A DNA stretch of 64,000 nt. Origin: Candidatus Latescibacterota bacterium. GTDB taxonomy: Bacteria; Latescibacterota; UBA2968; GCA-2709665. The DNA lies in contig CBDDDZ010000005.1 in NCBI GenBank assembly GCA_965226795.1, positions 1,920,001 through 1,984,000 on the forward strand, read 5' to 3'. A program made the translations under genes and the position numbers. The notes below the pieces were generated by a model. That model ran no database searches. It saw only the letters and a program-made list of their open reading frames with translations, and had not been told where the DNA came from. Shown piece by piece: positions 39,771 to 64,000 of this stretch (position 1 is the stretch's first letter; each line of letters begins with the position of its first letter).

Positions 39771-39774
39771 CTAG

Positions 39775-41267: not shown

Positions 41268-42587
41268 CTAACGCCGCAGGGATTTCGCTCCCCAATCCTC
41301 CTCAAAACAAAAAACCACGTAGTCGTCGTCCTCATCCACGCCACCTGCTTCAAAGGTCGCTCCTTGTATTGTTCTTCCTGCTGCAGGCCAAACGTGGATT
41401 AGGTTCGTGTTGTTACCGAAAGCCGCGAACTGAAAGTCGGTTGCATCCATTCGACCAGCCATATACTGCTGCAAGAGCCTTGACGATATCTTGATTCGCA
41501 TTGCACCCTCATGCATATCAACCCTTGTACCCTTATACCAGCCGCGGGCGATCGGACGAAACGCGCCTTGTCGGTGGATTTGCCTAACCTGATAGCCTTC
41601 GAAACGCGCGCGGGGGAGTTGAGCCGCCAGCATGTCCAGTCTCTCGTATTCTCCGTCAGCGACACCCTTTCTTGGGTCAAAGTAGGTTACGTTCCAGACC
41701 ACGTCTTGCCGTGGTCCCAAAACGACTCTCCTGTCACGAAAAGGCGAGAATACGCAAACGATGTCAATACCGCTAAGCTTTCTCAGCGCATGCCAGATGA
41801 TCTCCTCTCCACGGGTTTCGCGCCCGAGGTGGACCGCTTGTCCGATGTAGCGAAGCAACTGGCACCCTGCGTCGAAAAGAAAGACTACACGCAGGTGTCC
41901 ACTCCCCGCGTTCTTAATCTGCTTCGACTTCTTCTTGAGTGAATTAAAAATGGGGTTGTCCTCCAAATCATACGCCACCGGAGGCATTCTGCAAAAGACG
42001 GCGGGCTGTCTAGTCGGATGTTCGCGCCAAGCTATGAGCGCGTCTGTGCGACCGCGTGTGACGCGCAAGTTTTGCATGCGATCTGGACACTTCCGCCCGT
42101 TAAGCCATTCACGCAACTGCCCTTCAATATTGGCAGTCATCTGGAAATCCGGATCAACACAGCGGTCGCGCCGGAAGCGACCATCCCAATAGCTACGGTC
42201 CATAAACTCAAATGAAAGGTGGCGTCCGGCGTTCTTCGCAATGCGGTCCGCGCTCGAAGAGATAATGTTCGCCGTCCTTTCCATTGCATCTTGGCCCGAG
42301 AAACTGTCATCGGATAGGGCACGTACCTCCACAACAGCTCTGGCTGATGGGAAGAGATTTCTAGACAGTGCATCGGGTCGGCGGCCATTGCTGAGGACAG
42401 GTTCGAGACTCACATCTGCGACTTGTGCGATTGCCCAGAGCATCGACAACTCCGCCTCAGCTGCCAGCGCGTTGCGCGTGTTTGTGCTCTCCAATCTAGA
42501 AAGCAGATCATTGACTTTGGATGTGCTGGTGAGTAACGAGATATCGTCAATCATCGCGCTCAAACGTCGTCGCGCAAAGATAGGCAT
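41268..42587 (-). CDS. Hypothetical protein with a possible PD-(D/E)XK-like nuclease motif
   Basis: 439-aa intact ORF with AEAEL...RRPDA...VVEVR; downstream of and co-oriented with the Gabija-like pair. Confidence 0.7.
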   Translation of the reverse strand: MPIFARRRLSAMIDDISLLTSTSKVNDLLSRLESTNTRNALAAEAELSMLWAIAQVADVSLEPVLSNGRRPDALSRNLFPSARAVVEVRALSDDSFSGQDAMERTANIISSSADRIAKNAGRHLSFEFMDRSYWDGRFRRDRCVDPDFQMTANIEGQLREWLNGRKCPDRMQNLRVTRGRTDALIAWREHPTRQPAVFCRMPPVAYDLEDNPIFNSLKKKSKQIKNAGSGHLRVVFLFDAGCQLLRYIGQAVHLGRETRGEEIIWHALRKLSGIDIVCVFSPFRDRRVVLGPRQDVVWNVTYFDPRKGVADGEYERLDMLAAQLPRARFEGYQVRQIHRQGAFRPIARGWYKGTRVDMHEGAMRIKISSRLLQQYMAGRMDATDFQFAAFGNNTNLIHVWPAAGRTIQGATFEAGGVDEDDDYVVFCFEEDWGAKSLRR

Positions 42588-42838: not shown

Positions 42839-44725
42839 TCACATTCGGACCACCTCTTGGTCCTCGAACCAGCCAACACTGGAGATATGGCTGGCGACCT
42901 TGTCCGCCTCTTTCGTGTACACAATCACGGCGAGGCTCCGCTGAGCCCTGCTGCAAGTAACGTAGAAGAGACGTCGGGTTCTGTCTACGGATGTGTCCTT
43001 CCCTTCACGCCGGTTCTTTTCATCTGTGTTCGTCGGAGCTTTCGCCCCAAGCAACTTCTCATAGCTGAACATGAAACCGCGGGCTTCGTTGTCATCGAGG
43101 ATGACCATGACTCGCGGGAACTGAAGCCCTTTGATGCCTTGATGTGTTCCGAAAGGCGACCTGTCAGAGATGTACTCTGCATAGGCTTCGAACTGACTGA
43201 ACGGGACAGCAAGCGCTTCCCGCCAAGCATCGACCTCAGGATTCCTGTCGTCTTCCGCATCTGCGGGAACTGACTCTACCTCTTCTCCCTGCCCATCAGA
43301 GTCGGACAGGATGGGCGCAAATACATCGGGGATACCGAACAGGCCCTCGTGATCGACTACCTCGAGAATATCCAACAGGATGGGATCTGCGCCATCGTTC
43401 CACAGGGAGAACATGGACTCCACAGACCTCCCAGCCTTGCGGATTTCCTCTAATGAAGTCGTGCTTCCGCTCAGTCTTTCGGGAGACATGATCGGGGAGT
43501 AATCCTTTACGACATGAGCCACAGCAAACCTATCTTCGGATTGCATGGCTTGAACCAATGGAAGAACCTGCTGTGCGAAGAAAGCAATCCCATTCAAAGT
43601 CCCATCAAGCAGACCGGTCCTGAATTTGTCAATGCTGTAAAGCGACTCAAAGAAACGGTCGAAGCCACCCCTGCGCGCGGCCATGTGATGCTCAAGGGTA
43701 AGTACTTTGACCGCCTGTGCGCTCATCCATTCGTCATCGGAAGTGACCTCTGCCATTATCCTGGCCGCTTTCGCTTCGACTTTCAGTTTGTCTAAGTCGT
43801 CAACGTCATTGATTAGAAGCAGTCGCACAACCCCTTCTTGCGCGTCTTGTCTGGGCATCTGCTGTGCGCCGTCCGCTTCCGATCTGATCCGGTTGAGAAG
43901 CGTCACAATTCGTTTGGGACACCTGTGGTTGACGCCAAGCGCTGGTTTCTCCCAGCCTGCCGGGACAGCCTGCTCCAATCCGACTTTCCCGTCCGCGTAA
44001 ATGCGCTGCATCGTGTCACCGAACAGACACAGACTGAATTGGTCGGGATGCTCTGCCTGGAGGGCAAAGAATGCGTCAATCAGGTCTTTCTGAGTGTCCT
44101 GGCTTTCGTCGATGAGCAGGACTGGGTGCTTCCGAATCAGTATCTGACGCATGAGTGGCTTGTCGGAGAGAAACGCTGCTGTGATTGCTATGACCTCAGC
44201 GTGGTTCAGTGAGTTCTTGCCGATGTTTTCGCCGTTTGGGTTGTAGGTGAACTGCTTGATGACATCGAGATGCTGAAGTCGATTCCGCTTTGACTCAATT
44301 TGTACTTCTCGCTCACGGGCTGCCTTTGTTCCCGGCCTCCCGGACGCTTGCTTCTCGCGAAGTTCAGCGATTTCGTTGGACAAACGTAGGCGGAGACAAG
44401 CAGAGATGTCTTTGTGGTATGTGCGGATCTGCTCCCAAGCAAAACTGTGGATCGTGGACACGGCAAAGATGGGATCGAAATCTGTTCTGCGCCTAATCTC
44501 ATCACATGCGGCATTGGTGTAGGTTATGACAGCAACTTTCTGGCCCGACTGCCGGAACTGCGTGCCATAGCGGATCCGAAAGATGTCCATTGCCTCAATG
44601 ACCGCCCTTGTCTTGCCGGAGCCAGCGCCGGCATAGAGGAAGAAGCTCTTGGGCTTCTCCAGGTCGAGACACGCCGCAATCGTCTTTCTGAGTTCATCCC
44701 CTTGAGCGACTGCCTCAGGCATCAT
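42839..44725 (-). CDS. UvrD-like helicase (Gabija GajB-like)
   Basis: AGAGSGKT, ITYTNAA, DESQD, GDTMQRIY, HQGIKGLQF and RRLFYVTCSRA; coupled to an OLD nuclease gene. Confidence 0.88.
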   Translation of the reverse strand: MMPEAVAQGDELRKTIAACLDLEKPKSFFLYAGAGSGKTRAVIEAMDIFRIRYGTQFRQSGQKVAVITYTNAACDEIRRRTDFDPIFAVSTIHSFAWEQIRTYHKDISACLRLRLSNEIAELREKQASGRPGTKAAREREVQIESKRNRLQHLDVIKQFTYNPNGENIGKNSLNHAEVIAITAAFLSDKPLMRQILIRKHPVLLIDESQDTQKDLIDAFFALQAEHPDQFSLCLFGDTMQRIYADGKVGLEQAVPAGWEKPALGVNHRCPKRIVTLLNRIRSEADGAQQMPRQDAQEGVVRLLLINDVDDLDKLKVEAKAARIMAEVTSDDEWMSAQAVKVLTLEHHMAARRGGFDRFFESLYSIDKFRTGLLDGTLNGIAFFAQQVLPLVQAMQSEDRFAVAHVVKDYSPIMSPERLSGSTTSLEEIRKAGRSVESMFSLWNDGADPILLDILEVVDHEGLFGIPDVFAPILSDSDGQGEEVESVPADAEDDRNPEVDAWREALAVPFSQFEAYAEYISDRSPFGTHQGIKGLQFPRVMVILDDNEARGFMFSYEKLLGAKAPTNTDEKNRREGKDTSVDRTRRLFYVTCSRAQRSLAVIVYTKEADKVASHISSVGWFEDQEVVRM

Positions 44726-46957
44726 TTACCTCTGCCACCTCTGTCGAGATAGCGTCAATCTTTCTCGCCTCAAGGTTTTTCTCAAGCCACTTGAGGCCAT
44801 CCGCGATGTAGTTTGGCGGTTCTATAGCTGGTCCGGCTCACTCAGGTAGAGTAGCTCCAAGGCCAACTCAGCCTTGCTGCCCTTCTCCAAGTCGGAAAAC
44901 ATATCGTTGCTGGCATCTTCGAGGGTGTCCTTTCTGAGAGCCGCTTGGAGCTTCTTCAATAGGCCTACCGGTTTTGCATACCCCCGGAAAAGCGCAAGAT
45001 TCGTCAAGGCCAGTGAATCCTCAAACGTATAGGGTATCGCCTCTCCTTCACTTTCACCCTCCTTGTATTCCACAGTGATAGGGCACTGGTATGCGACCCT
45101 GACGAGCCCATCCGCTGTCTGTTTCGCGTTATCCGGCAGATCGAGCAGATCATCAAGTGGTTCCTTCTTGGGCACCCAGTCCTTGAGTGTGGTGTTTCCT
45201 GTTCGGTAGCCTTTGCCGCGCTCCGGACGGGCCTTGGCAGTGTCAGTTTTGTGAATCGAGTCCAAGTCTGTAACGACCAGAGACAGAAGCCCAAGAGTAT
45301 CCAATAGTGGTTTCAAACGATGTGCATGGGCGCCCCCGATCTCAAGAAGCGAGATGTAGCTTTGGTCCAGCTTGGGGAACTTCTCCCGGACGAAGTGGGG
45401 AATCAACATGCGTTCAGCCGAACCCTCCACGAGGATGGCCGCATCGGCGAAAAAGAGATCACAATGGGTTGTCCGAAGATAACGAGTGGCAAACTTCGAG
45501 GTCTCATCGTGGTCGCCGAACGTCTGCGAGAGATTGATAACCGTTGCCGTGGGAATCTCCCCATTCTTCTTGGCTGGTTCCCGACGGAAGTAGCGCAGGC
45601 AAGAGAAGTCCAGTTCATGAGCAATATGTGATGAGTGAGTGCTGACGATCATCTGCGTGCTGAAGGAAGAATCCGCAGGCGCAGCGTGGCGCCGGAGCAC
45701 TTTGTAGGCTTTTTTGATGAATACCTGCTGAACCTGCGCGTGCAGATGAGCTTCGGGTTCTTCAACAAGTACGACGTGCAAGGGTTCAATAGCAGCACCC
45801 TTGGTGTCTTGACTCTCGGCCGCTTTCCCAATCCGCATCCATTCGTCCCTGAATCGGATCAGGTTGAATACCATCGAGATGAGGTTCTGGTAACCCAGTC
45901 CGTTGTATTTCTCGGGCAAGGACAGCGAGTCTGCTCCAGGCAGGTCGAACTGTACTGCGGCCTCGTGATCAAGGCTGTCGCGTGGATCGATCTTGCTTGT
46001 TATGGAGATTTTCGGGTCACTGAATCCCGGATAGTTGAGACCCTCAAGTTCTCCAATGGCAGGCTTGAAGCTCGTCTTTAACGTCTCGTTGAATACCGTT
46101 TTCGCCGCTTCGATCGCCTCCAGAGCCTCGATATCACTCGCCTCCGGGGCCTCTGATGGATTCAAGTGCTTGGAGAAGCAACGGCGCAGCTGAGTCGAAA
46201 GGCTTGCAAAGCCACTGTGTGACTCATCTTCTGTCTTGGGATCGGAAAAGCCTCTTTGGGCAGTGATTACGTCAATCTTGATGAGACCATCGAATGGATG
46301 CTTCTTGAGCGGATCGCTGCCGGGCGGAAGCGACTGAGGCTTGGCGATTCCCTGCACCGGATCTTGGCGCTGCGTGGGGTCGAGAATGTAGGACTGGACT
46401 TCGAACTGGCTGTGAAGCCGTCTGTCCAGAAAGTCCCTCATTGAGTTTGGCCATAGAGACGGCGGTGACTTTGCGTTGGTGGAAGCTAACTCGGCGGCAC
46501 GTGCCGATTTGTAAGCGCTTCGGAAATCCTTGTAAAGTTGCTCCATGTTCTTTGGTGCTAACACAAGCCTGACTCCCAGCAATTCCCTGGGTGTCCAATC
46601 CAGTGTAGGGAGAAGATGCGCGACACGGTGAAGGTCTTTTTCGTCGGCTGTGAGCCAAACATCGATGGAGGGTAGCAGGGGTAGCAATGCGTCAACGGCG
46701 AGTACTGCTTCTTCATTGTCGGCGGAAGCCACCCACTGTGCTCCGAGGTGATTAAAAGACGACCAGTTTGAAAGGGTGAAATCCGTGGTAGCAAAGGCTT
46801 TGCGGCGGCTCTGCTTGAGAAAGAGGATCAGAGCATCCATTGCGGATGTTTTGCCGCTATTGTTCGCGCCGACGAAGATCGTCTCCTGTTGCGCGATCTC
46901 GACGCGGCATGCCTTCAGCTTCCGGAAGTTCTGTATCTCAACAAAGGCAATGTGCAC
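44715..46957 (-). CDS. OLD-family ABC ATPase/TOPRIM nuclease (Gabija GajA-like), frameshifted near the C-terminus
   Basis: GANNSGKT, EEPEAHLH, STHS, VEG..E and TDLD. The ORF stops at 44822, but the PPNYIADGLKWL tail continues in another frame to a TGA at 44715 overlapping the helicase start. Confidence 0.85.
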
Positions 46958-47013
46958 TCGATATTCTCCCATGCGTGGCAGAGTGGTTCAGCCGTTGCAT
47001 GCTCCATATATCT

Positions 47014-49091
47014 TCAAAAAGCCACCAATCTCTCCCCGAATTCGACGCGGAGATTCCATTTCTTCGTCGTATTTAGGGCTGGCTCAAGGCAGACGAAGAT
47101 GCCTTCCATGCCTTTGAGTTTGGCGATTGTCTGTTCCTTCAGATCGTAGTCGAGGCAGACTGTCGCCTCCTTGTGAGAGTCCCACGCGCGGAAGACCACG
47201 TTCTCGGTGAAGTCGGCAAGGGCTTCCGTCTGAACATCGAGCATAAAGCCGTTCTTGAGGAGGACTTCTTGAAGAATTCCCTCCTGGTCGAACGTCATCA
47301 GAAACGCTGCTTCCTTCTCCCGGATATAGGCATCAAGGGCCTCCAAGTTCTCCTCATCCGTCTTCTCTGGATCTGGCACGAACTCGGTTCGGGGAAAGCG
47401 AGACTTGGCGAGTTTGTAGACCTTGAAACCTGGGCGATCGGCGGTGTTCTGCTGAGGGGCGATTCCGGGCAACCGTTGTTTGGCATCGCGGTCCGCCGTA
47501 TCTGCCGTTTCGTGCAACTGCGCGACAACCCGTCTGTTCCGCTCAATGGTAATGTCCGATATTCGGCGATAGCCCTTTTTGTATGCGGGAGTACCCTCGT
47601 CGATGATCTCTGGAATCTGCACGAGAATGAAGGTGCGCGCCCCGCCACTTTTCGCGTTGATTTCCATGACAGCCTGACCGGTCGGGCCTGAACCTGCGAA
47701 GAAGTCTAAGACAAGGTCGCCGGATGTTGTCACATACTCAATAAGACGTGCGAGAATCTCATGGTCTTTTGGATTGTCGAAAATCTTTCCGTCTAGGAGC
47801 TTGCGAAGGTACTTGATCGTCACTTGCGACTGTTTGTATAGAACACTGGGCATGACCTGGAGCCCCATCTCTTCCTCACTACCGTTTTCGTCCGCGTCTG
47901 GCTCGTCGTCGAGGAGTTCCTCCGGGACCGGGATCAAGTGCGCCTTTCGCATAGGTGGTTTTGTGTGGTCCTCACGAAACATGACGAGTCCGAGGTCGAT
48001 CTGGCGTTGCATTGACTCAGAAGTACTGAAACGCCAGCCACTCTCTGGTACCTCACATGATTTTCCCGTGTCAGGATGGATCACGTCATAGCGGGGCCCG
48101 CCTCCGCCAGGCCAAGAAATGTCTCTGTCACGCCACGGTCCCCACTTGTCGATTTGTTTATACCTCGAGAGTTTCTTCGACGGATGCTTTGTTGGGAGAT
48201 CCTTGTACCATTGACGAAGCTCCGTCTCCATGGCCCCATAGTCCTCTCCGTGGACTTCCTTGAGCTCCAGCCACTTTTTGCAGATTTCTTTCGCCCCCGG
48301 CTTCTGCTCACGCCAGACTGTCTTCAAGTCTTTCAAATGCTGGAGGTCGCGAGCGTAGCAGACAACATAGTCGTGCCCCAAACTGAACAGCTTTGCATCG
48401 TTCTTCCGGGTCTTCTCCCATGTGAGCTGAGCGATGAAATTTTCCTCGCCGAAGGCCTCGTCGCACAGCCTGCGCAGGTGATGCGCCTCATTGTCATCGA
48501 TCGATATTAAGATGACGCCATCGGGAAGCAGGAGCTGTCGGGCAAGGAGCAAGCGGGGATAGAGCATGTTCAGCCAGTTGGAATGAAAACGGCCGTCACT
48601 CTTCGTGTTGGTGTCAACTTTCACGCCATCTGCAGTTACCCCAATGTGTTCCCAGTATGTTCCTCTGTCTTCCTTCCATGTGTCGGAATATACGAAGTCC
48701 TTGTCCTTGTTGTACGGCGGATCAATATAGATGCACTTGACCCGGTTGCGGTAGGAGGCGAGCAGACATTTCAAGACTTCAAGATTTTCTCCTTCAATGA
48801 TGGCGTTCCCCTCGGCAAGCCCTGGATTCACAGAGCGCTCGTGATTGTACTCCAAAGATGCGAGCGTCGGCGTGAAGGCGTTGCGCTTCGCGTCGGCCTT
48901 CCCAAACCAACGGAATTCAAAGCGCTCCGACTCCGGCACCAAGTCGGGATCGATGAGGCGTTTCAGCTCGTCCGGGTTGAGAGAGCCCCATCGTTGGTAA
49001 ATAGATCCGGCATAAGCGCTCGGAGTTGCTCCAGACGTTCCTGGTTCACATCCGGCGTGGCCGGCATTCGGTCCATAATGGCCTTGTTCAT
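47014..49091 (-). pseudogene. Type III R-M Mod methyltransferase with a frameshift near the 5' end
   Basis: IYIDPPYN, HSNWLNM, NPKD and DFFAGSG. The N-terminus MNKAIMDRMPAT...LMPDLF is out of frame at GAGAGAG (48979-48985); total length is 2078 = 3n+2. Confidence 0.85.
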
Positions 49092-50284
49092 AACTTGCCT
49101 TCTTCGTTCTCGGAGCGCCATTTCAGAAGCAGTCTGCGGAGCTCTTCCCTGGGCGGGAGTTCCAGCTTGTAACGACTGGCGAAAATACGCTCGTTGCCCT
49201 TGTCGAGCACGTATTCAACGACGGCGTCGTTCTTGTCGGTGCAGAGGATCAAGCCAATCGTAGGGTTGTCCTCCCGGGTGCATACTTCACGATCAAAATA
49301 GTGAACGTACATCTGCATCTGGCCGATGTCGCCATGAGTGAGCTTTTCTGTTTTCAAGTCGATGATCACATAGCACTTGAGGCGCACGTGATAGAAGACC
49401 AGGTCCGCATAGAAATGGTCTCCATCCAGCGTGAGTCGTTTCTGTCGGGCCACGAAGGCAAATCCAGCCCCTAATTCCAGCAGAAACTCCTGCATGTGGG
49501 TCGTAAGGGCCGCCTCCAGATCGCTTTCGAGCAACCGATGCGATTCAGGAAGTCCGAGAAACTCCAGGGCATAAGGGTCTTTGATGATGTCGATGGGGTG
49601 TTCGGTCGCCTGTCCTTCATTGGCGTGTTGCAGCACACCGTCCTTGTCGCGGCTCTTGAGCAGGCGTTCAAAGAGCAGGGTGTTGATCTGTCGTTCAAGC
49701 TGCCGCTTGTTCCAGTGGTTTCGAGCGGTTTGCTGTTCATAGAACTGCCGCGCTTCGTCGTTCTCGACGCGCATCAGCGCGCGATAATGCGACCAGCTCA
49801 GATCGGGATGGAAGCCGGTTGCGGATTCAACGCCCGTTGGGTGCTGTTTTGGTGTCAATTCTCCGCCCGGTGGGTGGGGATTTCCGCTCTTGCCTAATTC
49901 TCTACCCACTGGGGAGAGAATCTTTTGCTGCCTGAATTCTCTCCCCGACGGGGAAAGAATTGCCGCGGCGCGACCAGTGTACGTTTGATAGAACTTCCGC
50001 ATATTCCACAACGATACGGTGGAGTAGCCCTTGCCATAGCGTCCCGTCAGCCGCCTCGACAGATCCTCAATTACGGCCTTGCCGTAGTCAGCCCGTTTCT
50101 GTCCCTTCTGCTCTTCCTCAACGATTTCACGTCCGATCAGCCAATATGCCACCACCATCGCGCTGTTGACCGTTCGGGCGACATGACTGCGTGCTTCCTC
50201 GAGAATGTCGACAATCCGACCGAATAGCGCGGTATCGTCTGGAGCCGGGGTATTCGGGATCTTCTCCCGAACTTTGTCAGGCAT
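49088..50284 (-). CDS. YhcG/DUF1016 family PD-(D/E)XK nuclease
   Basis: YWLIGREIV, LSWSHY, KDPY.LEFL, FLLELG.GF, DLVFYH, IIDLK and GQMQMYV. Confidence 0.92.
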   Translation of the reverse strand: MPDKVREKIPNTPAPDDTALFGRIVDILEEARSHVARTVNSAMVVAYWLIGREIVEEEQKGQKRADYGKAVIEDLSRRLTGRYGKGYSTVSLWNMRKFYQTYTGRAAAILSPSGREFRQQKILSPVGRELGKSGNPHPPGGELTPKQHPTGVESATGFHPDLSWSHYRALMRVENDEARQFYEQQTARNHWNKRQLERQINTLLFERLLKSRDKDGVLQHANEGQATEHPIDIIKDPYALEFLGLPESHRLLESDLEAALTTHMQEFLLELGAGFAFVARQKRLTLDGDHFYADLVFYHVRLKCYVIIDLKTEKLTHGDIGQMQMYVHYFDREVCTREDNPTIGLILCTDKNDAVVEYVLDKGNERIFASRYKLELPPREELRRLLLKWRSENEEGKL

Positions 50285-50960
50285 GCGTGACTCCATTGGC
50301 ACGAGTCTTGAAGACGGAGTACTCCTTGACGGGCGCGTCGTAGTTGACCTGCGCATCGACCCCCAGCGCATGGAAGTGCTTCATGGCGCACTTGATCTTG
50401 TAGACCTCGCTCGCACGAAGTGCCTTCTTGTCCGCAAGCTCGTTCGTGCCCTTTGTTTCAATAACGAAGTAGAACTCGGTCTCTGCGCCGTTGCGCAGGC
50501 GCTTCCGTCGAAGAACAACGCCGAAATCAGGATTGTAGGGGCCGATGGGGGTTGGAATCTGGTAGAAGGCCGGGAGCTTGAGAAAGCAAACGACTTCGTC
50601 GTCGTTGTCCGCAGACCCGGCGAAGTCCCGCTCAATATTGCTGTCGAATACAACACGGTCGTATAGGCCCCGGTTCGGCGTTTCGATGGTGTCCGCGTAG
50701 GTCACGATACTCGGCTCAAGCCGCGAGATGTCGAATTCCTCGCCGCTGGGCGCATAGGTCAAGCCGCGAAGCAGTTCATCCAGTTCAAATTCCCGGATTC
50801 GCGATGACGCTTCGTGAATGAAGCGGGTGGGGTTTGCGGCGATGGCGGCACGGTTGGTTACGTCGCGCAGGATTCGGATCACTGTCGGATAGGCGAGTGT
50901 CGTTCCCTCGCTGATTTCCTCGACCAGATCCACAGCCCCGAACGTGGCACGCAGTCGGCG
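50277..50960 (-). pseudogene. C-terminal nuclease fragment of a type III restriction (Res) subunit
   Basis: FDSNIE..FA, LKLP..Y.IPTPIGPYNPDF and ETKG; the entire helicase region is missing. Confidence 0.85.
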
Positions 50961-51024: not shown

Positions 51025-51115
51025 TGGCGGATAGGGTGGGATTCGAACCCACGGTACCTGTGAGGGTACACCGGTTTTCGAGACCGGCCTGTTCAACCAG
51101 CTCCAGCACCTCTCC
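51025..51115 (-). tRNA. tRNA-Ser(CGA), second and possibly degenerate copy
   Basis: Differs from 63619-63709 at two positions (51032, 51059), giving an acceptor-stem G:A and a variable-arm C:A mismatch. Confidence 0.85.
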
Positions 51116-51190
51116 GCTCGAATACAGGGGCACGCCAGGTTTGATTGCGACTTCCGCCATCCGGCCACCGCAATCAATTCCATCGCTAAG

Positions 51191-51352
51191 TTACGGGTTT
51201 TTCTGGCGCAATTTTTGGAAGAACTGCTTCAGAATCTCTGAACAGGGCGCTTCGAGCACGCCTCGACGAACGTCGATTCGATGGTTGAGCCTCGGGTCAT
51301 CGACGACGTTCCGAAGCGAACCGCAGGCCCCGTTTTCGGGTCGTCGCCGCCG
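51191..51352 (-). pseudogene. tadA: 3' fragment of tadA (diverged duplicate of 63799-63961)
   Basis: Encodes CGSLRNVVDDPRLNHRIDVRRGVLEAPCSEILKQFF; carries a 1-nt deletion relative to the right copy and has no 5' half. Confidence 0.85.
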
Positions 51353-51424: not shown

Positions 51425-54400
51425 TTAACCCTTCAGCATGGTCTTCACGTAACTGTCCTTGTCCTCTTCCTGAAAAAGGACGTGCCGCCTTTGCATCTCG
51501 CTCTTCTTCATGCCCCACTGTCTGCGCATCGTCGCGGACGGAGTATTCGAGACGATGAAGGATTGCAAGTGCACGGCCGGATCGCCAAGGCGTTGTTCGA
51601 TCTCCTTGATGGTCTCGTGGAACTGGATCTTGAGATCGCCTGGCCCGAGATTCCGGATCCCCTTGGGGTCCACAAAGATGACGTGCTGCTGACCCCCTGC
51701 GAGCAACCACAAGATGAAGTCGGGGTGGAAGTTGCCGGCTTCGAAGAAGCCCACACCGCGGCCCCTGCTGAGGTTTCGTAGCAGATAGAGTTCGCGGGTA
51801 GCGAAGAAGTCCGTATTACCGTCGTGGAACGCCTTCAGATCCTCAACGAACTCGCGCTCGCCCTTGTTCAGCGGTGCGGGGGTGATCTCGACGATTTTTG
51901 TGTCCAGATAGAGCAGCGGCTGGTAGAGGTGCTTGCCGAACCAGATGGCTTTCATGCCCTGGAATTCCCAAGGCTTCAGCTCACCCTTCCGGATGGCGGC
52001 TTTGAGCTCCTCGAGCTTGGCGACGATCTCTTCCTGCGACTTGTCGATCAGGATGCGGTAGTAACCCTCGTCCGGCGAATCCTTCACGCCGAGGAAGTTC
52101 GGGTCGTCGTCTTCAAGGTAACGGTATTCGAGGTGAGGAAGCTCCCACTCGCGCTTTCGGAAGGTGTAGTAGCGCTCGGTGTACTTCTTGAGCAGCGCAA
52201 CGGCGATCTCCTCCCAGAGGCGCACCTTTTCGTAGGAATCACCTACAAGTTCCTCGCGGGGGATCTGCAAGCGATACCAGCTCCGGTCTCCGAGCAGGGC
52301 CTCGACTCCCTGCCGTGTGAGATTCAGGTTGTACCAGCCGCGCTCGGCCTTGAATCGCTCCAGATCGAAGCAAATGCGGTCGAGATCGAGGAAGGCCGCA
52401 TGGCGGGGTGTCAGGTGGGTCTCGTTCGGCGCGGCATCGGCATCGCCGCCAACCAGACCGCCCGACTTCATCGCCTGGATTTTCGGATACCAGTTGAGCA
52501 CCACCTGGTTTTCCTGGAGGTAGACGGTGCTCCGATCACCGGTGGGGTCCGGCGGCCCGACGGTCGGGATGGGCGCGAGCTTGCGAAACGCGTCTCCGAA
52601 CTCGGTGCTTACGCCGTTGATCGTCTTCTTGAGCCGGATCGTCTTGAGCTTCTGCGTCCCAAGGTCCTTGATGACTGGCAGCAAAAACTCGATGCGGTCG
52701 TCGTTGGTGGGTAGTCCCTCCTCTTCGAGGAAGTCCCGGAACTGCGCCATGTAGTCGGCCTGGATGCCGAAGATGCCGAGCGTCTCCAGGACTGCGATGT
52801 GTTTGGGCCGCTCGAAACCATCGGGTAGATCCGTCTTGCCGCTACGCTTGAGGCTCAGGTCGTAGCCCTTGAGCCGAACGCCGCGTCCGAAGAGCTGGAT
52901 GATCTGCGCGCCTTCCCCCTTGCCCACGTTCATCAGGCCCATCGTCGAAACGCGCCAACTGCTCCAACCCTCTGTGAACTTCTTCGAGCCGATCAGCAGG
53001 TTCACCGTGGAGTACGGCTGGTTGATCTCGTGGAAGAGCGATCCCGAGAACTCGCTCTCGTACCTGGCAAGGCCCTTCTCGTCACAGAGTTTCACCAGTT
53101 TGACGTCGTCGCCCACGTTGATGACGCCGAAGGGTTCGTTCTCGGCGCCCAGCCGAAGGGCCACTTCGCCGGTCACGCCCTTCAGGTTCTCCACATATAG
53201 CTGGCCGCCACCGGGGGCATTGAAGACCGTCGCCAACGTCTCGTCGAAGACCTGCTCCGGCGAGAGTCCACAGGTATTGAGATAGGCGAAGCGCTTGGCG
53301 AACAGGTTCTTGCCCGTTGCGGTGACAAGGCCCTGATTGAGAACCCGGTGGATGCGCTGGATGCTGCCGGCGCGTTCGGCTACGTAACCGGCCAGGAACT
53401 GCAATATTTCCACGATGTCCGACGCGTCCTTCTTCGCGAGCGTCGCCGTCACGCTCCCGCCCACGAAAATCCACAGGGGCTTCTCGATGTTGAACGGCCG
53501 AAAGGAGCCTCCTTGCTCAAGGTAGAGCCTCTGTTGCTGGAAGAAAGAGAGCAGGCAGGCCACGAGATACAGGTCCAGGTGGTTCTGTTGTGTTCCCTGG
53601 TCGAGATTGAGGATCTGGTAGTCCTTGCCGAAGCCGTCCGCGTAGAAATAGCGGTACGAGTAGTCACACAGCGTGCTCTTGGCGTACAGCTCGGTGAGTC
53701 TGGGGCTGCCCTTGACCGCTTGCCCGAAGGTGGCGGAGTACTCGAAGGAGAATCCTTTTTCGCACAGCGCATTGCGAAAACGCATCCACGCGCCTTCTTC
53801 TCCTCCGCTGGCGCCGCGGTGCCCTTCATCCACCAGCACCAGGTTGTTCCCCTCGAAGGCGTCGATGGCGATGGTCCTGTCACCCATCTCGTCGCGCAGC
53901 CGGGTCACTTCGATGATCTCGACCGCCTGCCCGCTGAACAGCCCGCGGCCGTCCTTGTTGAACAGCTCTGCGTCGATGCCGGCCGCCGCGAACTCGCGCA
54001 GATGCTGCTGCGAGAGCCCTTCGTTGGGCGTAAGCAGGAGGATGTGGTTCAGCTCGCGCCGCCGGCCATGCCGGTTCAGTGCGTGCCGGTACTGCAGGAT
54101 GTTGGCGTGCATCAGCAGCGTCTTGCCGCTGCCGGTGGCCATCCAGAAGGCCAGCTTGTTGAGCTGCGGCCAAGCCTCGGCGGCTTCGTCGAACGCGGCA
54201 ATCTGGTCGGCCTCGGCCTTGTTCGCGTTGCAGGCGGCCACCTGCTTGTTCAGATCCCCGAGCAGCGCCTTGGGATCACGGAAGTAGCGGTCGAGATAAA
54301 TCTCGCTGAAGAGCAGCGTCAGGTACTGGAAGTACTTCCAGACGATCGGCTCCTCGCCACGGGTGATCCGCCGTTCGTTCAACCGTTGCGTGTGCCTGAC

Positions 54401-54654
54401 TATGTTCTGGTCGTACTCCAGCAGCAGCTCGGTAGGCAGCCGCGTCAGGTTGAAAAGCTGTGCCGTGAGCGCGTGGTGGAAGTGGTGGATGTTGTTCTCG
54501 TCGAGCCCTTCCAGCGCCTCGTTGCGCAGATGCTCGGCCAAGTCCTCGAAACGCTCCACGTTGAAGAGCGAGAGCAGCCACTGGTTGAGCACCAGCTTGT
54601 GGGCGAACGCCACCTGCGGTTTCTTGGACGTGGCTTTAGCCCTCGTCTTCGCCA

Positions 54655-54658
<4 letters not shown>
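51425..54658 (-). CDS. Type III restriction subunit (Res), SF2 helicase plus nuclease
   Basis: [25 protein letters not shown] and C-terminal FHPDFILW...FVDPKG; overlaps the Mod stop. Confidence 0.9.
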
Positions 54659-57954
<3,296 letters not shown>

Positions 57955-57979
57955 AAGATGTCTTCCTTGTTGACGAAAT

Positions 57980-60211
57980 TCATATGCGGGCGAGCACCTG
58001 TTCGAACCACAGGATGGCCGCCTCGCCCTCTTTTCGCGTAACCTCGTCGACAGATCGACTGTGGCGTATGCCGTTTCGGAGTTCTGCCAACTGGCCGAAC
58101 TTCGCAGACAGCGTCTCCTTATTCACGAATCTCTTCTCGAAATCGTGCCAGAGACTCTTGCTGAGGATGGTATCCTGTAACTCACGCAGATCACAGTACT
58201 CAAGACGTCGGCTCAGTTGCCTGTACTGATCGAGTTCGATGTTGGCGTTCTTCCTTGCAGCAGTCTGGATGCGTTCATCAGCTTTCTGAAGCACGTGCGG
58301 CGGAAGCCGCCCAGCATCGTCTTCGAGTGTTGCGATCACTTGTTCGCGGACAGCGAGCTCAATACCCTCGACCCGTTCGTCCAACTCGCGTAACTGGGGC
58401 GACAGATCGATCCTCTCCTTGATCAGCAGGTTCTCGATCGCCTCCAATAACGTACGCTGGCGCTCGGCAATGAAGGCCTCGTAGTCGTCGGAAGTGAACG
58501 GCTTGCGCAACAGTACGTCCAGGGCCGCCGGTGAGATGAAGTGCGACTCGAGCACGCTGCGCATGGCGTTCGCTCCACTCTGCTCGATCAGCTCCGGCAA
58601 ATATTCGTTCGGGAACCGGTCGCGAATGACCTGTCGATTCGTCTCGGCAGTGAGCGGTGTGCGGTTCAGAATGGAGTGGATCAATCCATCAATTCCGAGT
58701 TCTCTCGCCATCGATGCCGGAATGATGTGATGATCGTCCAGATCATCGTGTTGAGGCACATTTCCGCTCATCCAGTCACGCGCGCCTTGAATAACCAACA
58801 GATTGAAGATGCCGTTATAGACCGACGTGCCGCGCCTGACTTCACGGCGAAGCTCTAAACTCCTGAAGCGCATTCCAAATTCCTGGATCAGCCCAGGTTC
58901 GCTCGCGTCGTCATCCATCCAGGCCTTCAGGTCCAGGAAGTCCCGGGCCGCGGTCGACTCGACAGAACCCGAGTAGCGGTTCAGGAATACCGAGGCCCAG
59001 TACCAATGCCGAATCTTCCGTTGCGCTTGAAGCCTTTGGTTGGGGGGCAAGCCTCTGATGTGGTGTTGGATGGCAGAAAACGCCGGGATGATCGAAACGT
59101 AAGGGAGATAGTTCGAAGAGATCGCCCCGAACTCCTGAGGATGCCGTAAGAGCTTGATCGCACTCTCAATTGCATCGACGGCATCGTTCCAACGATGCGT
59201 GAATGCCGTCGTGTCAGGAACGAGGACTTCCTTGTGGCGTGTCCCATCGGGATCTCGAATCGGTTTCTCCTGTCCGGGAAGAAGGAAGTAGAGGTACTTT
59301 GGCGAGCAGTACCCTTGCCTGAGAATCGACATCACCTGCAAAATGTAGACGTTCATCTTGTTCGAGTCGACGAACTCGAGGCGGGCGGCAGCGTCACGCC
59401 ACATCTGCTTCAACTGCACGCCCTTCGGTCTGAGCAACGCGTTGATGAGGTCGAAGGTGTCGAGCTGAACACCTTTGCTGTTGATTTGCGTGAAAATATC
59501 ACAGACCTTGTCGATACCAAGTTGCTGATCGAGTTCAATATACGAAATCTGGTACTGATCTGTCAGGCCCTTGACGTGCTCGCCAAACGTAGAGCCATTT
59601 TCGGCATACAGAACTGCTTGCTCATATTGGCTCTCCTTGCCGGCTTGCTTGGCCTCGTCCGCAGCCTCGTTCCAGTGCTTTTTGTATCCGTCCACCCACT
59701 CATAGAACGACCACCCGCCGTCGCCGACGACAGCCAACGGAAAGATATGCTCCGCATACTGCTGCTCACGATTGGTGATGAGTTGTGTCCAGCGCTTCGA
59801 CCAATCGTATTCGAACGCGTTGTCGTACTCCTCCGCCATGAAACGGTCGATGCGGACGAAGTAATAGTACCGATTCACGCGTGTGGGCAGTGGGATGTCA
59901 GGCGCCAGAAACGCGTAGTACATGGCGGTAAGTCGCTGCTGTCCGTCCAGCACGATGTACTCGGGTTTTTTTGAACCCTCGTAGCCGTAGACTGGTTCGC
60001 AGGACAGTGCGGCAAAGTTCTCATCCTTGCCCTTCCAGAGCAGCAGGCTCCCAATGTAGTAGTCGAGGAATATCGAGCGCATGAGGTCGCGAACGTCCCA
60101 TGGTTTCCACTCGAACTCGCGCTGAAAGTCGGGAATGACGAAGCGCCCCTCCCGCAAGTGTCCAATTAGCGTGTTTAGGCTGACGTGGTCAGGTTTCTGT
60201 GCATCTTTCAT
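57980..60211 (-). CDS. DUF262 (GmrSD-like) + HNH-like + C-terminal HEPN protein
   Basis: [33 protein letters not shown]...N.......N; helical C-terminus with LRNGIRH (RxxxxH). Confidence 0.85.
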
Positions 60212-60227
60212 ATGATCGTTCTCCAGT

Positions 60228-63146
60228 TCACGTCACCGCCCAGCGGATGGTGAAGAGTGCCTCCGCCTCTATTCGCTGTGCCAGCCGGCGCTCCAGCGAG
60301 TCGATGAGTTGGTCGCGCTTCTCGATGATCTGGTCCTCGGCCTTGAAGATCTCCTGGCGCTGGCGGCGTTGCTGGCGCTCGAGCTTCTGGATCTTCTCCT
60401 GAATCTCGTGCTGCTCGGCGAGCGTGGCCGCCTGCCGCGCCTGACGGCGCAAAGCCTTGATCTGCTCCTTGGTGTCCAGGAGCGCCTTCTCCGCGGAGAG
60501 CACCATGTCGTCAGCCCACCTTTCGAGCTTCTCGCGCGCCTCGTTGAAATGCGTGTTGTTCTGCTCCAGCGAGCGCGTGACCGTGGCCCGCGTGTGGCGC
60601 TGGGAGTCGCCGTCGAGACGTTGCGTCACCGCAGTCGAGATCGTGCCTGCGCCGTCGCCGTCATCGGCGATTCGGCCTGCACAACCGAACAGCTTCTCCA
60701 TCGTCTCCTGGTCGAGCGGCACTCCGGCCTCATCGAAACCGGAGAAAAGCAGGTACTCCTCCCGCTCATAGGAGTCGATCATAAGGCGAGTCAGCCTCAG
60801 ATAACCGGCTTTCCCGCGCAGTGCCTCGATCACGTGGAGACGCGTCGGATGGCTGGTCACGTCGAAGACGATTCGCTCGGGCGGGGTGGAAAGCGCTTTT
60901 GCACCGTCCACGACATGCTCGCCGAGCGGGTGCGCCAAGCGATACAGGAAGACACCCTGGGTCTCGTCGCCGTCCTCATCGGCGCCTGTTCCAGACTTGG
61001 GATGTGACTTCGAGATCAAGTGGTATCGCCCTTTGAGGATCTCGGGACGGGGCGGGAGCTCCAGATCGAAGGCCAGCGCCGCGTCGTCGAACCGTGCCCG
61101 CCCATCGAGCATGAAGCGCGTGAGCGACCAGAACCGCCTACCCACGCGGTCGAGCTGGGCCTGGGCGTCGGCAAGCTGGAGGCGGAGCCGCTGGTGCACG
61201 TCCTCGTCGAAGTGCTCGAAGAGCGTGCGACGGGTGTCGTCGAGCCGCGTTCGGATCTGCTCGTCCATCTCGGCTTGCAGCGTGCGGAAGGCGGCGTCGA
61301 TCTCTTCGGGTGTGCGGCACTGCTGGTAGATGCCCAGGATGCGCTTTTCGAAATCGACACCCGATTCGATGCTGCCGAGCACCTCGTCCGAAGCGCCGAA
61401 AACACCGTTGAAGAGGCTGAACTTCTCGGTTAGAAGCTCCAGGACGCGGCGGTCGGCGTCGTTGCGTTCATTCAGGAAGTTGATCACGACCACGTCGTGC
61501 TTCTGTCCGTAGCGGTGGCACCGGCCGATGCGCTGCTCGATGCGCTGCGGGTTCCAGGGAAGGTCGTAGTTCACGACGAGCGAGCAGAACTGGAGGTTGA
61601 TGCCTTCCGCCGCCGCCTCGGTAGCGAGCAGGATAATTGCCTCGTCCCGGAAGTGCTCGATGAGCGCCGTGCGTACGTCCACCGCCCGCGAGCCTGAGGC
61701 ACGGCCGGTGTCGCGGTTCTCTTCTGCCCAGCGCTGGTAGATCGCGCTGGCCTCCGGCCCACCATTCGTGCCGTTGAAGAGGACGACCTGCCCCCGGTAG
61801 CCATGCGATTCGAGGAAGCCCTTCAGGTACTCCTGGGTCCGACGCGACTCGGTGAAGATCAGCGCCTTGCGCGCGGCGCCCGTCGTGACCATCTGCTCGA
61901 AACCGATCTCCAGCGCCTTGAGCAATGCCTGGGTCTTGGTGTCGATGCCGATGGCGCGCGCCCAAGTGGCGAGACGCTGGAGGACGCCGATCTCCTCTCG
62001 CAGCTTCTGCCGGTCTACGGCGACCGGATGCGCGGGGGGCTGGTCAGCGTCCTCGCTCTCCACGAGGATCTCGTCGAGCAGATCGTCCTCGATTTCCTCG
62101 GCCTCGATGAGTTGCTCCGGGAACTCGGGATCGCTGCTCGCCTGTTCGTCATGCAGCGTCTCGAGGCGTGCCCTCAACGTGTCGAGTGTGGCAGCAATGG
62201 CCTGCGACGACGAGGCGAGCAACTTCCGTAGAATCAAGGCTGTGAGATGCCTCTGCCTCTGGGGGAGTGCGTAACTGTCCTCTCGCTGAAGAAAGCCGGA
62301 AACCGCCTCGTAAAGCGCGTGTTCCTCGTCCGTCGGCTTGAATGGCCGCGTGATCGGGCGCCGCTCCGTGTACCGGATGTACTCCATCACTTCGTTGCGG
62401 AGGGTACGCTTACAAAAGACCGAAAGCCGCTGCTGTAGGGCTTCCAGGTTGCTGCCTGCACTGGCGTACTGAGACCGGAACGAGTTGACATCGCCAAAGA
62501 GACGCTCGTCGATGAGCGTCGAGAGGCCGTACAGCTCAAGGAGTGAGTTCTGCAGCGGCGTCGCGGTCAGAAGCAGTTTGCGACAGTCCTCCGTGGCCCA
62601 GCGGATTCCCTGACCAACCTTGTTCCTCGGACGGTACGCGTTGCGCAGCTTGTGGGCTTCGTCGATGACGACGAGGTCCCAGGCAATCGTCTTGAGTTCC
62701 TCACGCAGGCGGTTCGCATAGTGGTGCGACATAACGACGACGGCATTTGCGCCAAGCGGTGTTTGGCCGCTTCGCCTGGCTTCGCGATAGACCTTCGCGT
62801 CGAGCACCTGCACGGGCAGATTGAACTTCTCCTCCAACTCCAGCGCCCACTGCTTGCGGATGGAAGCCGGGCAGATCACCAGCAGACGGCGCTTGCGTTC
62901 CGCCCAGAACTGACACAGCACAATTCCCGCCTCGATCGTCTTCCCGAGGCCGACCTCGTCGGCCAGGATAACGCCCTTGGAGAGGGGCGATTGCAGGGCG
63001 AAGAGGGCTGCCTCGATCTGATGCGGGTTCAGGTCGACGGCCGCGTCGAATAGCGCCATCGACAGGCGGTCCATTCCGCTGGCGGCACGACGCGTCAGAT
63101 CGTGAGCGAAATACTTCGCGTGGTGAGGGGTGAGCGTCAACTGCAT
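60228..63146 (-). CDS. SNF2-family helicase
   Basis: LNPHQ, ADEVGLGKT, DEAH, LTATPLQN, EGINLQ, DLPWNPQRIEQRIGRCHRYGQ and a coiled-coil tail. Confidence 0.92.
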   Translation of the reverse strand: MQLTLTPHHAKYFAHDLTRRAASGMDRLSMALFDAAVDLNPHQIEAALFALQSPLSKGVILADEVGLGKTIEAGIVLCQFWAERKRRLLVICPASIRKQWALELEEKFNLPVQVLDAKVYREARRSGQTPLGANAVVVMSHHYANRLREELKTIAWDLVVIDEAHKLRNAYRPRNKVGQGIRWATEDCRKLLLTATPLQNSLLELYGLSTLIDERLFGDVNSFRSQYASAGSNLEALQQRLSVFCKRTLRNEVMEYIRYTERRPITRPFKPTDEEHALYEAVSGFLQREDSYALPQRQRHLTALILRKLLASSSQAIAATLDTLRARLETLHDEQASSDPEFPEQLIEAEEIEDDLLDEILVESEDADQPPAHPVAVDRQKLREEIGVLQRLATWARAIGIDTKTQALLKALEIGFEQMVTTGAARKALIFTESRRTQEYLKGFLESHGYRGQVVLFNGTNGGPEASAIYQRWAEENRDTGRASGSRAVDVRTALIEHFRDEAIILLATEAAAEGINLQFCSLVVNYDLPWNPQRIEQRIGRCHRYGQKHDVVVINFLNERNDADRRVLELLTEKFSLFNGVFGASDEVLGSIESGVDFEKRILGIYQQCRTPEEIDAAFRTLQAEMDEQIRTRLDDTRRTLFEHFDEDVHQRLRLQLADAQAQLDRVGRRFWSLTRFMLDGRARFDDAALAFDLELPPRPEILKGRYHLISKSHPKSGTGADEDGDETQGVFLYRLAHPLGEHVVDGAKALSTPPERIVFDVTSHPTRLHVIEALRGKAGYLRLTRLMIDSYEREEYLLFSGFDEAGVPLDQETMEKLFGCAGRIADDGDGAGTISTAVTQRLDGDSQRHTRATVTRSLEQNNTHFNEAREKLERWADDMVLSAEKALLDTKEQIKALRRQARQAATLAEQHEIQEKIQKLERQQRRQRQEIFKAEDQIIEKRDQLIDSLERRLAQRIEAEALFTIRWAVT

Positions 63147-63196
63147 GGCTGCACCCAGACGAAGTTGGCGTAGGGCGGTTTGGCGGGCATGTAGTC

Positions 63197-63446
63197 GGCC
63201 CTTATGCCGGCACGGCTGCGGTCGTTGTCGAACGTGTCCGCGTGCGCGATCTCGCCATGAAGTCGAGGATTCATCCGAAGTACAAGACCAGATATCGCGT
63301 TGGGAATTGGCGGGCGTAAAAGCGAGCGCTCGTGCAGCGCGGCGATGTAGCGCTGTGGCACTCTGGCGATGCGAAGGACGCGTGCAGACCGCCGCCGTCG
63401 GGTCACCCCGAGGGTCAGAAACGGTTCTCCGATTTCGCGATCAAGA
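63197..63446 (+). mobile_element. IS5-family (IS903-group-like) transposase remnant
   Basis: From ATG 63257 it reads MKSRIHPKYKTRYRVGNWRA*KRALVQRGDVALW...GQKRFSDFAI, with an internal stop and a truncation. Left boundary approximate. Confidence 0.75.
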
Positions 63447-63618
63447 AGATGACGAAGACCGGCCGCCGGCGGTGGAAGAAAGCGTCGGGCGAGGATGCTA
63501 CCATGAGCGGAAAGCTGAGCGAACCCGCCACGCCCGTCGGGAATTGAGCATAGAAAGGATACTGTATGATCTACGAATCCGCATAACGCGTCTAGAATGA
63601 ATACTTTGCAAGGATTAT

Positions 63619-63709
<91 letters not shown>

Positions 63710-63798
63710 GCCTCAAACGCGTTGAGCCACCGCCCCTGACACCCCTTCCGTGTTGCACATCTCACAACCCGATTTTCGCCACATGCTGAATCGCGAGG

Positions 63799-64000
63799 TT
63801 ACGACTTCTGCTGACGCAGTGTTTGAAAAAATTGCTTCAGAATCTCAGAACAGGGCGCTTCGAGCACGCCTCGGCGAACGTCGATCCGATGGTTAAGCCT
63901 CGGGTCATCGACGACGTTCCGCAGCGAACCGCAGGCGCCCGTTTTCGGGTCGTCGGCGCCGATCACCAGACGGGACACCCGAGCCAGCACGAGCGCGCCC
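63799..64000 (-). CDS. tadA: tRNA adenosine(34) deaminase, 3' part (runs off the window)
   Basis: GALVLARVSRLVIGADDPKTGACGS...RLNH...GVL...CSEILKQFF. Confidence 0.9.
   Translation of the reverse strand, partial: GALVLARVSRLVIGADDPKTGACGSLRNVVDDPRLNHRIDVRRGVLEAPCSEILKQFFQTLRQQKS

Follow-up and report, generated by a model that had tools for sequence, protein, structure and literature searches.

A three-gene type III restriction-modification operon with a probable GmrSD/BrxU-like cargo gene in a tRNA-Ser island of a Latescibacterota bacterium

Introduction

Four genes filling a tRNA-Ser island of Candidatus Latescibacterota bacterium are best explained as a three-gene restriction-modification (R-M) operon of type III, in which an SNF2 ATPase acts as a loosely coupled motor and a mobile GmrSD/BrxU-like gene has been inserted between SNF2 and mod. 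We give this reading a probability of about 0.72. The island lies in a stretch of 64,000 nucleotides, here called the window (GCA_965226795.1, contig CBDDDZ010000005.1, positions 1,920,001 to 1,984,000). By sequence comparison, its SNF2-mod-res genes belong to the already described three-gene type III R-M systems represented by Eco86II and BspHIV, and are not a new four-part system; the window locus is one more member of a group counted in hundreds of genomes. The original prediction for this DNA was right about the gene classes, their linkage and the distinction from DISARM, and wrong or unsupported in proposing a new four-part system with a dedicated SNF2 subunit and a fixed DUF262 layer.

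Genes and boundaries of the island

The features of the island are as follows.
60228..63146, minus strand: SNF2 ATPase, 972 aa (Pfam SNF2-rel_dom and Helicase_C)
57980..60211, minus strand: DUF262 gene, GmrSD/BrxU-like, likely cargo, 743 aa (Pfam GmrSD_N)
54655..57954, minus strand: long type III Mod, beta-class amino-methyltransferase, 1099 aa (PADLOC MTase_III, PDLC03646)
51425..54658, minus strand: type III Res, SF2 ATPase with C-terminal PD-(D/E)XK nuclease, 1077 aa (PADLOC REase_III, PDLC03654)
63619..63709, minus strand: tRNA-Ser(CGA), host-side copy, downstream of intact tadA (ARAGORN; tadA ORF 63799-64275)
51025..51352, minus strand: cassette-borne second copy of tRNA-Ser(CGA), together with its spacer and a 3' fragment of tadA (tRNA itself 51025-51115)
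63147..63618, no strand given: leader; contains a broken piece of a putative transposase and a short putative hsdM-like remnant; no HTH regulator gene

The four open reading frames are co-oriented on the minus strand in the order SNF2, DUF262, mod, res, with gaps of 16 nt (SNF2/DUF262) and 25 nt (DUF262/mod) and a 4-nt overlap of mod and res, and they occupy 11,722 of the 12,503 nt (94%) between the two tRNAs. In this, the predicted filling of a tRNA-Ser island by four intact genes was confirmed, and each of the catalytic motifs said to be intact could be located in the sequence. SNF2 has the Walker A lysine K69, DEAH D162 and QRIGRCHR at 538, and the DUF262 protein has DGQQR at 89, DDHHI at 492 and RNGIRH at 712 (R712-x4-H717). 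In Mod, DPPY at 511 precedes FAGSG at 804, which is the beta order, and the target-recognition region at about 55660-56820 is variable and of low GC (0.49). Res has GSGKT at 176, DEGH at 277, QLFGRGVR at 588 and PD at 979 followed by DPKG at 997. The leader fragments are presumably a piece of an IS5-like transposase and a scrap of an hsdM-like gene. A conserved HTH regulator was considered for the window's clade and rejected, since HTH genes like those of loci L072, L075 and L078 stand upstream of SNF2 in 2 of the 68 GTDB loci with enough DNA there for the count. A scan of the locus for promoters and terminators stayed at shuffle level (4 against 3.0 and 8 against 10.9).

In sequencing run X1, depth over the unique target-recognition stretch of Mod is 39, compared with 34-41 in its flanks, and X1 contigs cover all 30 bins; this coverage is not independent support, because X1 may be the source sample itself. 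A joint that skips DUF262 occurs in a single X1 contig, whose shorter arm is 33 letters long; it may come from another organism. From RNA runs X5 and X6, low-depth contigs with parts of the cassette were obtained, one of them spanning the DUF262-mod junction, although contigs cannot show transcription.

Two complete tRNA-Ser(CGA) genes bound the cassette (51025-51115 and 63619-63709, ARAGORN), a copy of the 3' end of tadA stands before each, and the repeat comprises the tadA 3' end, a spacer and the whole tRNA (51025-51352 and 63619-63961). Identity of the distal copy is 82% with the host-side copy and 91% with its counterpart in G008, a genome of the same genus that carries the same cassette in the same place and also has the duplicated repeat; each of the six further loci retrieved from the genus has one copy. 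Within the genus, the distance from tRNA-Ser(CGA) to tRNA-Ser(GGA) ranges between 0.5 and about 17 kb, and this interval is a hotspot. On the simplest reading, a circle carrying the cassette together with the tadA end and tRNA of a former host would have entered by one crossover in the tRNA. A tyrosine integrase belonging to the cassette was rejected, as 0 of 4 PF00589 matches lie in or beside the window. Of 168 genomes of the phylum, 2 contain the SNF2 and 7 the DUF262 protein. In G008, mod is split by a 1.9-kb transposase insertion (L083:7812-9699), while SNF2 and res are whole.

Beyond the distal tRNA, a second defence island (window 42839-50933) encodes 218 C-terminal residues of a Res of EcoP15I/StyLT type, a YhcG/DUF1016 protein, an intact 642-aa type III Mod, which may still methylate as an orphan, and a complete Gabija pair (GajA 46972-44822, GajB 44725-42839). 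A 439-aa ORF with no PADLOC match (41268-42587) adjoins a 1.44-kb insertion sequence (39771-41214) with three other genomic copies at 98%. At G000:C3, about 197400-202100, short stretches of DNA match the window mod and res at 68-83%, which hints at a second, related locus on a different contig.

A type III system of the Eco86II/BspHIV kind

Type III R-M systems with an extra helicase-like SF2 ATPase gene 5' of mod have been described in more than 500 genomes by Murray et al. 2021 (PMC8259958). Eco86II of Escherichia coli NCTC86 and BspHIV are members of this three-gene group, both forming m4C (PMC8259958); a member of the group would be expected to place m4C on a single strand of an asymmetric site and to cleave about 25 bp away. 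Full methylation was obtained with mod alone, without the extra ATPase, and a partly purified Eco86II preparation cut DNA partially while no peptides of the ATPase were detected in it (PMC8259958). In the open-access literature, to which searches here and below refer, we found no paper after 2021 on the role of the extra ATPase.

E. coli NCTC86 carries an SNF2-mod-res locus, which we take to be Eco86II because the strain is reported to have one type III system with such an additional gene (PMC8259958). Its SNF2 is 54% identical to the window SNF2 over 974 columns, its Mod 39% and 34% identical in two blocks and its Res 38% identical over 1153 columns, and the best PADLOC profiles are the same for the Mod (PDLC03646) and Res (PDLC03654) of both loci. 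The assignment to type III R-M is borne out by this homology together with Pfam and PADLOC. The original prediction knew of no experimental characterization of the gene combination and named a match to an already described system as what would speak against it; the three-gene core is already in print and has been partly characterized (PMC8259958), and such a match is therefore what was found. The DPPY motif of Mod cannot discriminate between products, and by homology to Eco86II the modification would, at slightly better than even odds, be m4C.

Linkage of the SNF2 ATPase to mod and res

The prediction had left to a neighbourhood survey whether SNF2 is consistently linked to mod-res and whether the second slot varies, and both proved to be the case. 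The GTDB survey comprised 71 loci from the best 80 of 189 confirmed stretches, mostly close relatives. Mod follows SNF2 in 69/71, and the other two end within 5 nt of a contig edge. Res is present in 58/71, and in 58 of the 59 whose downstream DNA reaches 4 kb or more; among the 13 without it, 12 fall short of 4 kb there, and in the remaining one, L054, mod is stretched to the end of the locus by insertions. The order SNF2-mod-res was also found in all four plasmid loci and all four E. coli loci opened, some of which have far shorter Mods and a Res that is not alignable to that of the window. Among 5,426 E. coli genomes, 258 have a match to the SNF2 gene.

Viewed from Res, the association is less strict. 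In a second survey of 80 metagenome loci (the best of 476 confirmed candidates, again mostly close relatives), 37 have 6 kb or more of DNA upstream of res; SNF2 is present in 30 of these, and the other 7, two of them nearly identical, have a whole mod-res without SNF2. Partners are also exchanged between clades. Among 67 loci with both proteins intact, three combine an SNF2 that is 77-79% like that of the window with a Res that is 64-65% like that of NCTC86 and 39-40% like that of the window, and four combine an SNF2 that is 52-53% like the window's with a Res that is 71-82% like the window's. The clades across which partners are swapped are only about 39% identical, and the C-terminal identity of SNF2 is not shifted in the swaps. 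On a quick tree of 26 rows, hand-picked from 73, SNF2s paired with an NCTC86-type Res, a group fixed beforehand by Res identity, require 3 changes, and an AU test on this tree rejects a single clade for them (p 8e-90). In two distant plasmids, of Priestia and Athalassotoga, a UvrD-PD-(D/E)XK helicase takes the place of SNF2 5' of a long mod (L175:3063-6008 and L177:3253-6039), and a UvrD-nuclease-like domain set is fused to SNF2 in two proteins of about 1990 aa (P0173 and P0178). No co-oriented helicase was found directly 5' of mod in a haloarchaeal plasmid. The loci without SNF2 and the swaps between clades make a fixed third subunit unlikely, and SNF2 is probably loosely coupled to Mod-Res. 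The near-perfect linkage of SNF2 to mod is stronger than a loose helper requires, and in this respect counts against the reading that we prefer.

The DUF262-HNH-HEPN gene as cargo

The DUF262 protein consists of a DUF262 NTPase domain (residues 14-260), the motif of a putative DUF1524-type HNH domain (492-525) and a C-terminal HEPN domain (about 600-743), and its motifs are kept in 118-120 of 120 homologues. The NTPase domain is matched by Pfam PF03235 with 116.8 bits, and DGQQR is present in all 120. DHHI is found in 119/120 homologues, with N516 and N525 invariant; no Pfam family matches this region, and the pLDDT is below 50 over residues 454-529. RNxxRH is found in 118/120, the two misses being truncated proteins. 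BrxU is both a profile match and the best fold match (7P9K, Z 11.8), the latter covering residues 114-604. With region 598-743, VIA returned PbAbiF (Z 8.5, rmsd 3.8, 139 residues aligned), AbiA, AF_0298 and the sacsin HEPN domain, with Z values that are moderate for a helical domain, and an Atlas lead for the C-terminal domain pointed to Swt1-HEPN (0.85). The AF2 model is weak (pLDDT 66, pTM 0.45; residues 1-114 and 454-529 below 50), Foldseek gave no match for it at E<=0.001, and Pfam searches with six sub-domain fragments gave only chance-level matches. Judged by fold comparison, the C-terminal domain is a HEPN fold with a conserved Rx4-6H motif, and the original description of a DUF262 protein with a HEPN domain was upheld, as a GmrSD/BrxU-like protein with HEPN at its C-terminus. 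The BrxU-like family with HEPN has at least 120 close members, and no paper on a GmrSD-HEPN fusion was found in the open literature.

The G008 cassette joins SNF2 directly to mod and has no trace of the 2.25-kb DUF262 gene, and GC3 is 0.70 in the DUF262 gene as opposed to 0.82-0.83 in SNF2 and Res. An intact close homologue of the DUF262 protein is present in 0/71 GTDB loci, among which there is one 60-residue DUF262 fragment and one distant DUF262 protein (25%) in the other slot. In eight other genomes with a long homologue (4/168, 2/401 and 2/401, two weaker partial matches being left out), the gene is never in SNF2-mod-res (0/8), and in four of the eight it lies in or beside type I hsdM. 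In L178, L179, L086 and L087, we take the DUF262-HNH-HEPN gene to stand either in the hsdM-hsdS interval or a short way upstream of hsdM, within type I R-M operons. The family in type I R-M operons is an embedded defence candidate. No homologue was found in five genomes behind SNF2 loci, in a search run without a positive control. Against the cargo reading, the exact four-gene order with the same junctions recurs in one of the 80 metagenome loci, L100, which makes the arrangement heritable.

Inserts longer than 300 nt occupy 18 SNF2-mod and 30 mod-res junctions, and 35 of 58 complete triads carry an insert in one of these two slots while 23 have none. Scans of 30 and 11 chosen proteins identified AbiD, SoFic, AlbA, HNH, PDC-S01 and PDC-M30 proteins and transposases, and BLAST identified YhcG, so that many unrelated defence-type genes occur in the slots. 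Because a same-genus cassette lacks the DUF262 gene and all eight other genomic homologues reside elsewhere, we regard it as cargo, likely an independently mobile gene in a three-gene operon; it likely encodes an anti-phage nuclease. The idea that DUF262 is a fixed layer of one system was not sustained, the gene being absent from the G008 cassette and free-standing elsewhere.

Proposed role of the extra ATPase

For the window SNF2, AF2 gave a confident model (pLDDT 89.9, pTM 0.90). Over the full length, RapA matches this model best: it takes Foldseek ranks 1-4, with TM values of up to 0.55, and VIA aligns 649 residues. The N-terminal Tudor domains of RapA and a nuclease motif are absent. RapA recycles RNA polymerase, according to the titles of its structure entries, and the available text of PMC3413136 describes communication between type III enzymes as blocked by protein roadblocks and their turnover as inefficient. 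A scheme can be proposed for the operon. Mod would methylate one strand of an asymmetric site, and Res would cut unmethylated DNA, by homology to Eco86II with ATP-dependent cleavage near inverted sites. SNF2, as a RapA-like translocase on double-stranded DNA, may push proteins off the DNA, and could in this way clear roadblocks between two sites or release Mod2Res after the cut, acting through DNA and transient contacts and not as a stable subunit. By analogy, we tentatively suggest that SNF2 serves as such a DNA-clearing or recycling helper of Mod-Res, with somewhat less than even confidence in this part of the scheme. The inserted DUF262 gene likely acts alone as a back-up nuclease, and GmrSD-like genes are stated in the available preprint text of Payne et al. 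to be often embedded in other systems and to defend alone (bioRxiv 2024.01.29.577857). It would cleave modified phage DNA in the manner of BrxU, by an NTP-gated HNH activity, and its HEPN domain may act as an RNase in abortive defence.

The ietHAS system, also called Liu-DS4, provides the only relative of the window SNF2 with a measured phenotype, and its tie to the family has been inferred from residue numbers and context. The available text of PMC13069673 (NAR 2026) describes ietH as a DrmD-like SNF2 required for T7 defence by ietAS; with ietH K65A or D165A, T7 defence is lost and the system becomes toxic. The construct is described there as three genes with mod and res not mentioned, and the terms 'type III' and 'methyltransferase' are absent from the main text. 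In E. coli, L077:12898-23661 encodes SNF2, IetA, IetS, Mod and Res in this order. Its SNF2, 41% identical to that of the window over the full length, has the Walker A lysine at K65 and the DEAH aspartate at D165, unlike five other family members checked. The whole five-gene block is present in 74/74 E. coli genomes with the SNF2-ietA pair, and the block frequency of 1.4% compares with 'more than 1.5%' in the available text (PMC13069673). By these residue positions and the gene context, ietH is very probably the L077 SNF2, and ietHAS looks like an ietAS module inserted in a three-gene type III R-M operon, whose extra ATPase would be ietH. No paper joining ietH to type III R-M was found in the open literature, and neither IetA nor IetS has a match among the proteins of the window.

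If ietH belongs to the family of the window SNF2, this family may also control nested cargo. SNF2 would then be a guard or licensing factor that holds a toxin-type cargo, here the HEPN/HNH protein, in check and releases it once a phage interferes with the DNA or with the R-M complex, with restriction first and abortive defence second. That one family member acts with its slot cargo keeps this model alive and counts against the reading that we prefer: K65A and D165A of ietH both abolish T7 defence and cause toxicity (available text of PMC13069673), the L077 order is constant in E. coli, and more than half of the complete triads have a slot insert. The same toxicity could come from an ATPase-dead SNF2 itself. 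The cargoes, moreover, are of unrelated families (AbiD, SoFic, AlbA, YhcG, HNH, PDC-S01, PDC-M30), and the many cargo-free triads and the DUF262 homologues living without SNF2 in 8/8 other genomes make the model unlikely for the window locus. We consider it just as doubtful in its general form, in which three-gene type III R-M systems would have, in their extra ATPase, a guard motor of the ietH family that silences slot toxins or nucleases such as IetS and the DUF262-HNH-HEPN protein until a phage blocks restriction. Were it true, restriction operons would have a built-in plug-and-play abortive back-up, and should the ATPase indeed govern nested cargo, an operon that is very common would amount to a platform for two-tier defence.

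The layered system originally envisaged, with SNF2 as a stable, dedicated third restriction subunit and all four genes acting together, agrees with the tight spacing, the near-invariant linkage of SNF2 to mod and the recurrence of the gene order in L100. It is nevertheless very improbable, as Eco86II was active without detectable ATPase peptides and mod alone methylates fully (PMC8259958), SNF2 is missing in 7/37 res loci, partners are swapped across clades of about 39% identity with no shift in SNF2 C-terminal identity, and the sister cassette of G008 has no DUF262 gene. Still further from the evidence is an SNF2 that is an autonomous defence or mobility gene travelling at the head of the island. 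Its lack of a nuclease motif, its freely swapped partners and its occasional fusion to UvrD-nuclease or other domains (P0173, P0178) would suit such a gene, whereas it never occurs without mod where DNA is available (69/69), across four very different Mod/Res clades. For the three-gene operon with a loosely coupled motor and an inserted cargo gene, these comparisons narrow the role of the extra ATPase: it is probably not a stable subunit, swaps partners, has a RapA-like fold and can be replaced by a UvrD nuclease.

Comparison with known systems

The window locus shares with Eco86II and BspHIV an SF2 ATPase without a nuclease motif 5' of mod, a long beta-class Mod and a Res with GSGKT, DExH and PD-(D/E)XK motifs. 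It differs from them by the 2.25-kb DUF262-HNH-HEPN gene between ATPase and mod and by a different target-recognition region in Mod. With ietHAS, it has in common a DrmD-like SNF2 directly upstream of a defence module, and the L077 locus continues into type III mod-res. However, the cargo of ietHAS is the IetA ATPase and the IetS protease as opposed to DUF262-HNH-HEPN, and the Mod (542 aa) and Res (956 aa) of L077 belong to a clade other than that of the window.

The short form of DrmD from class I DISARM is the best profile match over the ATPase core of the window SNF2 (residues 31-668; PADLOC PDLC02619, 662 bits), but the score with NCBIfam DrmD_b, 672 bits, is below the cut-off of 950. With no drmA, drmB or drmC at the locus, DISARM was rejected. 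The absence of its DUF1998 and PLD genes had been predicted and was borne out, with no match to DUF1998 (PF09369) in the genome, which is 96% complete, and five genomic PLD matches of which none is within the window. RapA resembles the window SNF2 in fold over its full length, although its N-terminal domains are missing from the latter. The DUF262 protein has in common with the type IV restriction enzymes BrxU, GmrSD, HEC-05 and HEC-06 a DUF262 domain with DGQQR, a serine aligned to the RLFDS motif of BrxU and the motif of a putative DUF1524-type HNH domain. At only about 16% identity, it differs from them by an additional C-terminal HEPN domain with an invariant RNxxRH motif. It also shares with this group the habit, described in the available preprint text (bioRxiv 2024.01.29.577857), of nesting inside other defence operons.
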